From: Octopus vulgaris | Taxonomy: Eukaryota | Assembly: GCA_951406725.2 (NCBI GenBank) | Contig: OX597832.1 | Location: forward strand, 42,780,001-42,844,000 | DNA length: 64,000 bases | Direction of reading: 5' to 3' | Part shown: piece after piece, positions 63,375 to 63,740 of the stretch | How positions within the stretch are numbered: the first letter of the stretch is position 1 | Layout: the number at the start of each line of letters is the position of its first letter | The notes under the pieces: generated by a model | The model's database searches: none | Seen by the model: the letters and a program-made list of their open reading frames with translations, nothing else | Told to the model about the DNA's origin: nothing | Program-made: the position numbers and the translations under genes

Positions 63375-63740
63375 GGCATTACTTCCACACACGCCAGCTT
63401 AATTTAATTTGTCCTAAGTCGAAAGACACCTGTTGTTATGTCCTGCTATTTGTATTTGTGTAACTTTCTCCGTTTTTCTGTCCTTGTTTTCGTATACATT
63501 CGCTGCTTTCTTCTAAGGAATCTAATGCTCTTAGCTTAGTTTTTACTTGACGCTGGTCAGATTGGAGCAATCTCGAGTATAACCAGCCGAAATTGCAAAG
63601 ATAATCTGGAACTCGACTGAGGAAAGAAAACTCCGAATGAGCCGTCTTTGTTTTATTTGTATCGTCTGTCTGGATGTTTTGTTGTCCCTTTCTTGTATCA
63701 CCTAACTGTCTTGATGCTTTGCGTTCTTTGTCCATTTTGT

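Follow-up and report, generated by a model that had tools for sequence, protein, structure and literature searches.

A split hammerhead motif in an octopus repeat

The window analysed here is a 64,000-nt stretch of the Octopus vulgaris genome (GCA_951406725.2, contig OX597832.1, positions 42,780,001 to 42,844,000 of the forward strand); coordinates are counted from its first nucleotide. At 63374-63744 (+) it contains a 5'-truncated copy of a repeat that we call family 2, namely the 3' ~370 nt of a ~805-nt non-coding unit. The copy lies between two (TA)n tracts, the one at 63745-63800 anchoring its 3' end. Within it, positions 63551-63623 (+) hold every core box of a hammerhead ribozyme as well as stems I to III, in the order S-G-C.

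The 5' strand of stem II (63551-63556) comes first, detached from the CUGANGA box, followed by the 5' strand of a helix b (63557-63563), the equivalent of the helix through which stems I and II interact in type-SGC hammerheads (PMC10085705). Block S (63567-63578) comprises the 5' strand of stem III (63567-71), the AUC triplet (63570-72) with C17 at 63572, and the 5' strand of stem I (63573-78). A linker of 4 nt (63579-82), short as in type SGC, leads to block G (63583-63596): the 3' strand of stem II (63583-88), GAAA (63589-92) and the 3' strand of stem III (63592-96). After the 3' strand of helix b (63603-63609) comes a truncated block C (63611-63623), consisting of the 3' strand of stem I (63611-16) and CUGAGGA (63617-23) with no stem II strand after it. 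All these elements are on the plus strand, as is an optional helix c (63564-63567/63631-63634) that is without support across families. By analogy with hammerheads, the predicted cut falls at 63572/63573.

Every helix and box of the preliminary description, as well as the opposition of C63551 and C63588, lies where it was placed there. Stem III (63567-71/63592-96) has 5 bp, one more than described, and stem II was rightly located except for an additional pair, U63557-A63582, that is private to the window copy. Stems I (63573-78/63611-16), II and III abut the core as a hammerhead requires, both in this copy and in the family majorities. The G10.1 position sits 72 nt upstream of A9, where hammerheads are expected to join the two directly or through 1-2 nt, and the contiguous block C required by type SGC (stem I strand, CUGANGA, stem II strand) is interrupted. 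In effect, the motif follows the SGC/CSG cyclic order, with the chain broken open between A9 and G10.1.

Rfam models, which cannot express such a topology, gave no match within the window at gathering threshold. Nested minimum-free-energy folding was unremarkable and uninformative (z -0.85), as crossing helices would lead one to expect. A strict pseudoknot descriptor had no match in 150 shuffles of the window (19.2 Mb); it misses the window copy at 63551 because it demands G10.1. Relaxed so as to accept this copy, the descriptor finds only three real motifs in the window and a single match in 19.2 Mb of shuffled sequence, which bears out the earlier judgement that the arrangement is unlikely to arise by chance. 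The window motif is a real hammerhead-type feature in a slightly damaged copy. With its C10.1-C11.1 mismatch, this copy is a decayed insertion and probably slow or dead.

Family 2 is a dispersed non-coding repeat

Family 2 is a thousands-copy, non-coding, (TA)n-anchored repeat. A first look at the genome (2.8 Gb, 227 contigs) returned 4007 candidates, and among 40 scored the full-length matches were 90-93% identical. We compared the window copy with 29 others picked by BLAST without regard to structure. All 28 proposed pairs, those of stem II included, and all core bases (CUGANGA, GAAA and the NUH triplet) are individually kept in 25-29 of the 29. Position 63551, where a G had been expected, is G in all 29, and G10.1-C11.1 is paired in 28. 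Position 63557 is C in 27 of them. These two positions set the family register: stem II pairs 63551-56 with 63583-88 and helix b pairs 63557-63 with 63603-09, in place of the register first given for helix b (63558-63/63603-08). The window copy departs from the family majority at 23 of 370 positions. In that majority no stem II strand follows CUGAGGA: the sequence there would pair with the 3' strand of stem II at +1.1 kcal/mol, versus -11.2 kcal/mol for the upstream strand.

Copies of family 2 have a 3' end fixed at (TA)n, variable 5' truncation and, in L025 and L028, inverted 5' parts; in L026 and L029 the unit is followed by the start of the next one. These are the features expected of Penelope-like mobilisation: an anchored 3' end, 5' truncation, partial tandems and inverted 5' parts. 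As in retrozymes, the units are non-coding, both tandem (family 1, described below, and family 2 in L026 and L029) and dispersed, with one ribozyme each. The longest of the 30 family 2 copies extend ~430 nt further 5', ending in (TA)n without an ORF, and the longest ATG-initiated ORF of the unit is 70 aa. A search for an autonomous partner of family 2 identified none, and no homology to a Naiad was evident.

Upstream in the window lie two copies, 90% alike, of another repeat (~62986-63331 and ~62174-62514), with a tRNA-like end near 63160-63220; this is probably a SINE.

Family 1 carries the same layout in another sequence

The minus strand of the window contains a full 880-nt unit of family 1 (24076-24955), with its motif at 24361-24284 and the predicted cut at 24335/24334, and a partial unit in tandem upstream of it (25022-25371, motif 25309-25232). 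Copies of this family are 99-100% identical among 40 scored and often stand in tandem. The cores of families 1 and 2 share 38 of 79 aligned columns and blastn between the units finds nothing significant, so that the two elements were justly called unrelated in sequence; a remote common ancestry is possible.

A very young subfamily of family 1 forms arrays of up to five units with a period of ~835 nt (for example G000 C2:62119908-62122532). Some young arrays carry U at 11.1, closing stem II with a G-U pair, yet still spread. In assembled contigs from four sequencing runs covering family 1, depth steps at the predicted cut, 28-fold in X1 and 2-3-fold in the other three. We discounted this step as evidence of cleavage: the data are contigs from one study, and diverged subfamilies end at that place.

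The split layout recurs across repeat families

Fetched loci were grouped by sequence similarity around 19 seeds, with 1-39 distinct members each, and the majority sequences were parsed. The split layout parses in 17 of the 19 majorities, beyond the two element families from which a conserved structural class had originally been proposed; A4 and A5 gave no automatic parse. For family G, an all-Watson-Crick stem II strand is visible by eye, but the script took one lying further away. Between groups, the cores have 43-63% of their aligned columns in common. As there is some relationship among the families, the 17 parses should not be read as independent events.

The boxes, G10.1, U16.1-A15.1, the H of NUH and minimum stem lengths are all built into the descriptor. 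The invariance of the boxes, of G10.1 and of U16.1-A15.1 is therefore no evidence, and we turn to pairs beyond the descriptor minimum: I.5 is paired in 16/17 majorities, II.4, II.5 and III.4 in 17/17 and III.5 in 16/17, compared with 0.38-0.52 when strands are paired across families. Up to four Watson-Crick pair types occur per position. Helix b has 5.5 Watson-Crick pairs against 3.1 in the cross-family control. Stems I, II, III and helix b thus show compensatory changes across families, in line with four of the five helices first said to covary; the fifth, helix c, reaches 2.9 pairs against 3.1 in the control and was rejected as a general feature. The purine-rich linker noticed after CUGANGA in the window is not conserved either, this tail being pyrimidine-rich in the families linked to RLE-type retrotransposons. 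The cleavage-site triplet is always NUH (with H set by the descriptor): GUC in 7 majorities, GUU in 5, AUC and GUA in 2 each and AUA in 1.

Core-box patterns in the genome exceed their backwards controls (3855 versus 58, 4907 versus 971 and 6220 versus 4797), counts that leave out the CUGAAGA variant and whose excess may include matches other than the split motif. Judged by these sequence comparisons, the split layout forms a structurally conserved class that several element families have spread. By analogy with type SGC, helix b would be the tie between stems I and II.

An old decayed family, seen in L206 and L222 (~1445-1560, minus strand), has seemingly the same layout; it does not pass the descriptor.

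The motif lies at the 3' ends of several kinds of retroelement

The carriers found are of three kinds: non-coding units in tandem, Penelope-like elements of the Naiad group, and non-LTR retrotransposons of RLE type. In group C, the motif stands downstream of the C-terminus of a Naiad-like reverse transcriptase (RT) in 11 of 20 loci, and by eye both the RT peptide and the motif match a published octopus Naiad consensus, the motif at its 3' end (PMC8557442).

In groups D, F and G, the motif comes just past the stop codon in non-LTR retrotransposons that encode a C-terminal restriction-like endonuclease. Of 30 group D loci, 26 contain remnant motifs, among which some single matches may be due to chance. 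To judge by their motifs, the RLE-type carriers of these three groups are probably of clade HERO. One intact ORF belongs to a young family with many near-identical copies: L529:140-3436 (+), in G000 C13, encodes a 1099-aa RLE-type protein with RVT_1. The split hammerhead begins ~30 nt past its stop codon, and a small hairpin separates its stem II from helix b; a longer G run puts this motif outside the descriptor range, and the sister copies L541 and L542 parse. The layout is also found in an organism other than this one: a single metagenome locus out of 120, on a marine contig (L256, 290-380, minus strand), passes the descriptor, with its motif ~30 nt behind the stop codon of an RLE-type ORF. 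Its peptide is related to RT proteins from molluscs, from amphioxus and from fish. A search of viral contigs for relatives of the RLE protein found none.

Penelope-like elements of this genome with a C-terminal GIY-YIG domain, among them a family whose ORFs of 781 aa are intact, were tried as carriers and rejected: the descriptor had no match in 30 + 18 loci, and CUGANGA was absent within 800 nt downstream in the 8 loci inspected. A GIY-YIG remnant upstream of the L013 motif was likewise set aside, as a TA tract intervenes and the remnant is probably a nested insertion. L091:1245-3587 (+), in G000 C16, represents a young Penelope-like family with intact 781-aa ORFs encoding RT and C-terminal GIY-YIG. 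Its 3' region contains short tandem repeats, with CUGANGA absent within 800 nt. This family is a candidate helper for the non-coding ones.

Permuted hammerheads in published Naiad consensus sequences

Craig et al. (2021) described Naiads as having no canonical hammerheads, and in the accessible material of that work only fragments labelled 'HHR_core' or 'HHR_half_core' are flagged (PMC8557442). We parsed the 3' ends (~550 nt for most) of 20 of the 54 consensus sequences by eye, without a script, taking names from the order of the metadata table. Five of the 20 show the split layout: two from octopus, one from squid, in which stem II is imperfect, and two from cnidarians, the hydrozoan Naiad-3_Chem and the box jellyfish Naiad-2_Movir. 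Another five, four from nematodes and one from a spider, parse by eye as complete type CSG: Naiad-2_Nbra, Naiad-3_Nbra, Naiad_Hpol, Naiad_Parc and Naiad_Smim. The accessible text of the 2023 study gives only two CSG sequences, both from metagenomes (PMC10085705). The 3' end of crab Naiad-Ppla reads by eye as type SGC, with block C intact and ~300 nt between S and G, and was not flagged in the authors' accessible tables; to judge by its letters, Naiad-1_Dst may resemble it. Among the 20 ends, eight gave no parse and one was ambiguous. In Naiad_CGi, hammerhead boxes are absent from the 3' end, and the short 3' UTR contains a GC-rich, structured-looking stretch.

Relation to known hammerheads and retrozymes

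The closest relatives of the split motif are types SGC (HRIMA-1) and CSG (PMC10085705), with which it shares S-G-C order, a Watson-Crick helix tying stems I and II, the core boxes, multiple pseudoknots and a short linker from stem I to stem II. It departs from them in its divided block C, with the stem II 5' strand and one strand of the tie placed 5' of block S. The blocks were assumed to be uninterruptible by Eckert, Friedrich, Weinberg and Weinberg (2023), whose descriptors need G10.1 at most 1 base from CUGAUGA (PMC10085705). In the accessible text of that paper, metatranscriptomes and metagenomes are the source of the SGC and CSG examples, with no known organism's genome among them; both types cleave in vitro, at 0.004-0.19 per minute.

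As for the carriers, animal non-LTR retrozymes are likewise non-coding, contain a single hammerhead per unit and occur both scattered and as head-to-tail tandems (PMC7229834), and are probably mobilised by Penelope-like elements (PMC7229834; 10.64898/2026.07.22.740005). Their hammerheads are of type I (PMC7229834), whereas our units carry a pseudoknotted split ribozyme that falls outside type I. Retrozyme units usually measure 150-450 nt, and up to 972 in the preprint 10.64898/2026.07.22.740005, compared with ~805 and 880 nt here. Like the present families, Naiads target (TA)n, undergo 5' truncation and show partial tandems as well as inverted 5' ends (PMC8557442); unlike them, family 2 has no ORF. 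The hammerheads in Penelope pseudo-LTRs (Cervera and de la Pena 2014, PMC4209133) also have their core near the element end, but are of type I, with little or no helix III, and need dimers. In the split motif, helix III has 5-6 bp and a single copy can fold by itself.

The permuted core boxes were correctly recognised in the preliminary description, although S-G-C order in itself had been published in 2023 (PMC10085705). Two things are new: the break between A9 and G10.1, and the presence in animal retroelements. The openly accessible literature searched contains no description of the split layout or of non-circular hammerheads in animal retroelements, nor any link between a hammerhead and the 3' UTR of RLE-type retrotransposons. 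The split form is also unmentioned in the accessible text of a 2026 paper that cites the 2023 work (PMC13725137).

Predicted cleavage and its alternatives

We now propose that the scattered strands would assemble the usual hammerhead core and that the RNA would be cut after C17, at C63572 in the window copy; at the level of the family we consider it likely, by analogy with known hammerheads, that the motif is an active self-cleaving ribozyme. The hammerhead metal site uses the phosphate of A9 and N7 of G10.1, and both survive an opening between them. A natural viroid hammerhead has one extra nucleotide between these residues, where A or U is tolerated and C or G is harmful (PMC3705267).

After the predicted cut, the products would stay paired via stems II and III and helix b. 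In tandem arrays, two cuts would release a unit-length RNA that could be circularised as in retrozymes, whose unit-length RNA can be closed by tRNA ligase (PMC7229834). It might then be reverse-transcribed by a Penelope-like enzyme primed in (TA)n; such enzymes have been proposed to mobilise retrozymes (10.64898/2026.07.22.740005; PMC4209133). The expected outcome would be 3'-anchored, 5'-truncated copies, partly tandem or inverted. In autonomous elements, cutting in the 3' UTR may set the next copy free from a read-through transcript or restrict the mRNA.

Cutting of the template might leave a footprint in the 5' ends of genomic copies. We read by eye the first 100 of 942 family 2 matches anchored downstream, dropping one duplicate; full-length copies are undercounted here, since an intact copy with C at the first letter of the search pattern is missed. 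Among these first 100 matches, 82 copies are at risk at +1 to +16 of the predicted cut and 23 of them start there, versus 5 of 57 at -16 to -1 (Fisher p 0.005); the other zones would predict about 6 starts at +1 to +16. Eight rows begin within +1 to +4, and the excess persists (Poisson p 0.001) without 8 starts possibly explained by TA microhomology. The young family 1 has no such excess (1 versus 0 among the first 100 of 724 matches), and an older mixed set gave 9 of 29 versus 2 of 20, which is not significant (p 0.16); L128, which had been assigned to the wrong family, was dropped from this set and from the free-energy comparison. Stalling of the RT at stem II or TA microhomology could explain part of the family 2 excess. 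We regard this clustering as suggestive only of template cutting.

The lack of excess in family 1 would also fit a fold derived from a hammerhead that has lost cleavage and now acts as a structural element at the 3' end, for RT recognition or RNA stability. So would the retention of both sides of the site in most genomic copies, and an experimentally tested hammerhead with its backbone open between A9 and G10.1 was not found in the literature searched. We nevertheless hold this unlikely: the exact spacing and chemistry of the hammerhead core are kept by unrelated element classes, with a triplet that is always NUH (again with H imposed), and it is just past the predicted site that the 5' ends of family 2 gather.

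The stability of the two potential stem II strands bears on another reading, in which the motif would be an ordinary type-SGC ribozyme that builds stem II from the strand after A9, or does without helix II, and the upstream strand would be a competing off-switch. The upstream strand is the more stable one in 17/17 majorities; it is also nearly all Watson-Crick, covarying, and ends exactly at GAAA, while helix b follows it as it follows stem II in type SGC. Most family-1-like majorities can indeed form a G-U-rich stem II of 4-6 bp one nucleotide past A9, and viral hammerheads with a 1-bp or absent helix II do cleave, slowly (PMC13725137). But such a contiguous stem has only 0-1 bp in family 2, its relatives and the RLE-linked families, and 2 bp in the Naiad family, which makes this reading very unlikely.

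Finally, that chance pairings have been read into repeat DNA, where short helices and G-U pairs are easily found and helix c indeed stands at chance level, is hardly credible and largely refuted by the 0-1 descriptor matches in shuffled sequence, by 12 passes in 47,600 trials with the core boxes held fixed, by 0 of 120 viral loci preselected for the boxes, and by the position of the sole match among 120 metagenome loci behind a retrotransposon ORF.

Returning to the split motif as an active ribozyme, we lean towards the broader proposal that such an active topology, with its A9/G10.1 opening, commonly occurs at the 3' ends of animal retroelements from two unrelated superfamilies, Naiad Penelope-like elements and RLE-type retrotransposons, and of their non-coding parasites. 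Together with CSG and SGC in other Naiads, it would represent the 'missing' Naiad ribozyme, and non-circular permutations would be abundant in animal chromosomes. If true, this would extend the published six-order scheme of hammerheads and break its premise that CUGANGA and stem II are inseparable. Non-circular permutations would pass from unnamed environmental contigs to animal genomes, in thousands of copies, and a hammerhead would be placed in the 3' UTR of RLE-type retrotransposons. It would also directly answer the seeming absence of ribozymes in Naiad elements, and a hammerhead that accepts its stem II strand as a separate piece would offer a new handle for RNA switches.

In three copies with inverted 5' parts (L112, L025 and G000 C1:106672715-106672844), the junctions lie within the ribozyme, and that of L112 falls on the complementary strands of stem I. 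The ribozyme structure may guide template switching at such junctions.
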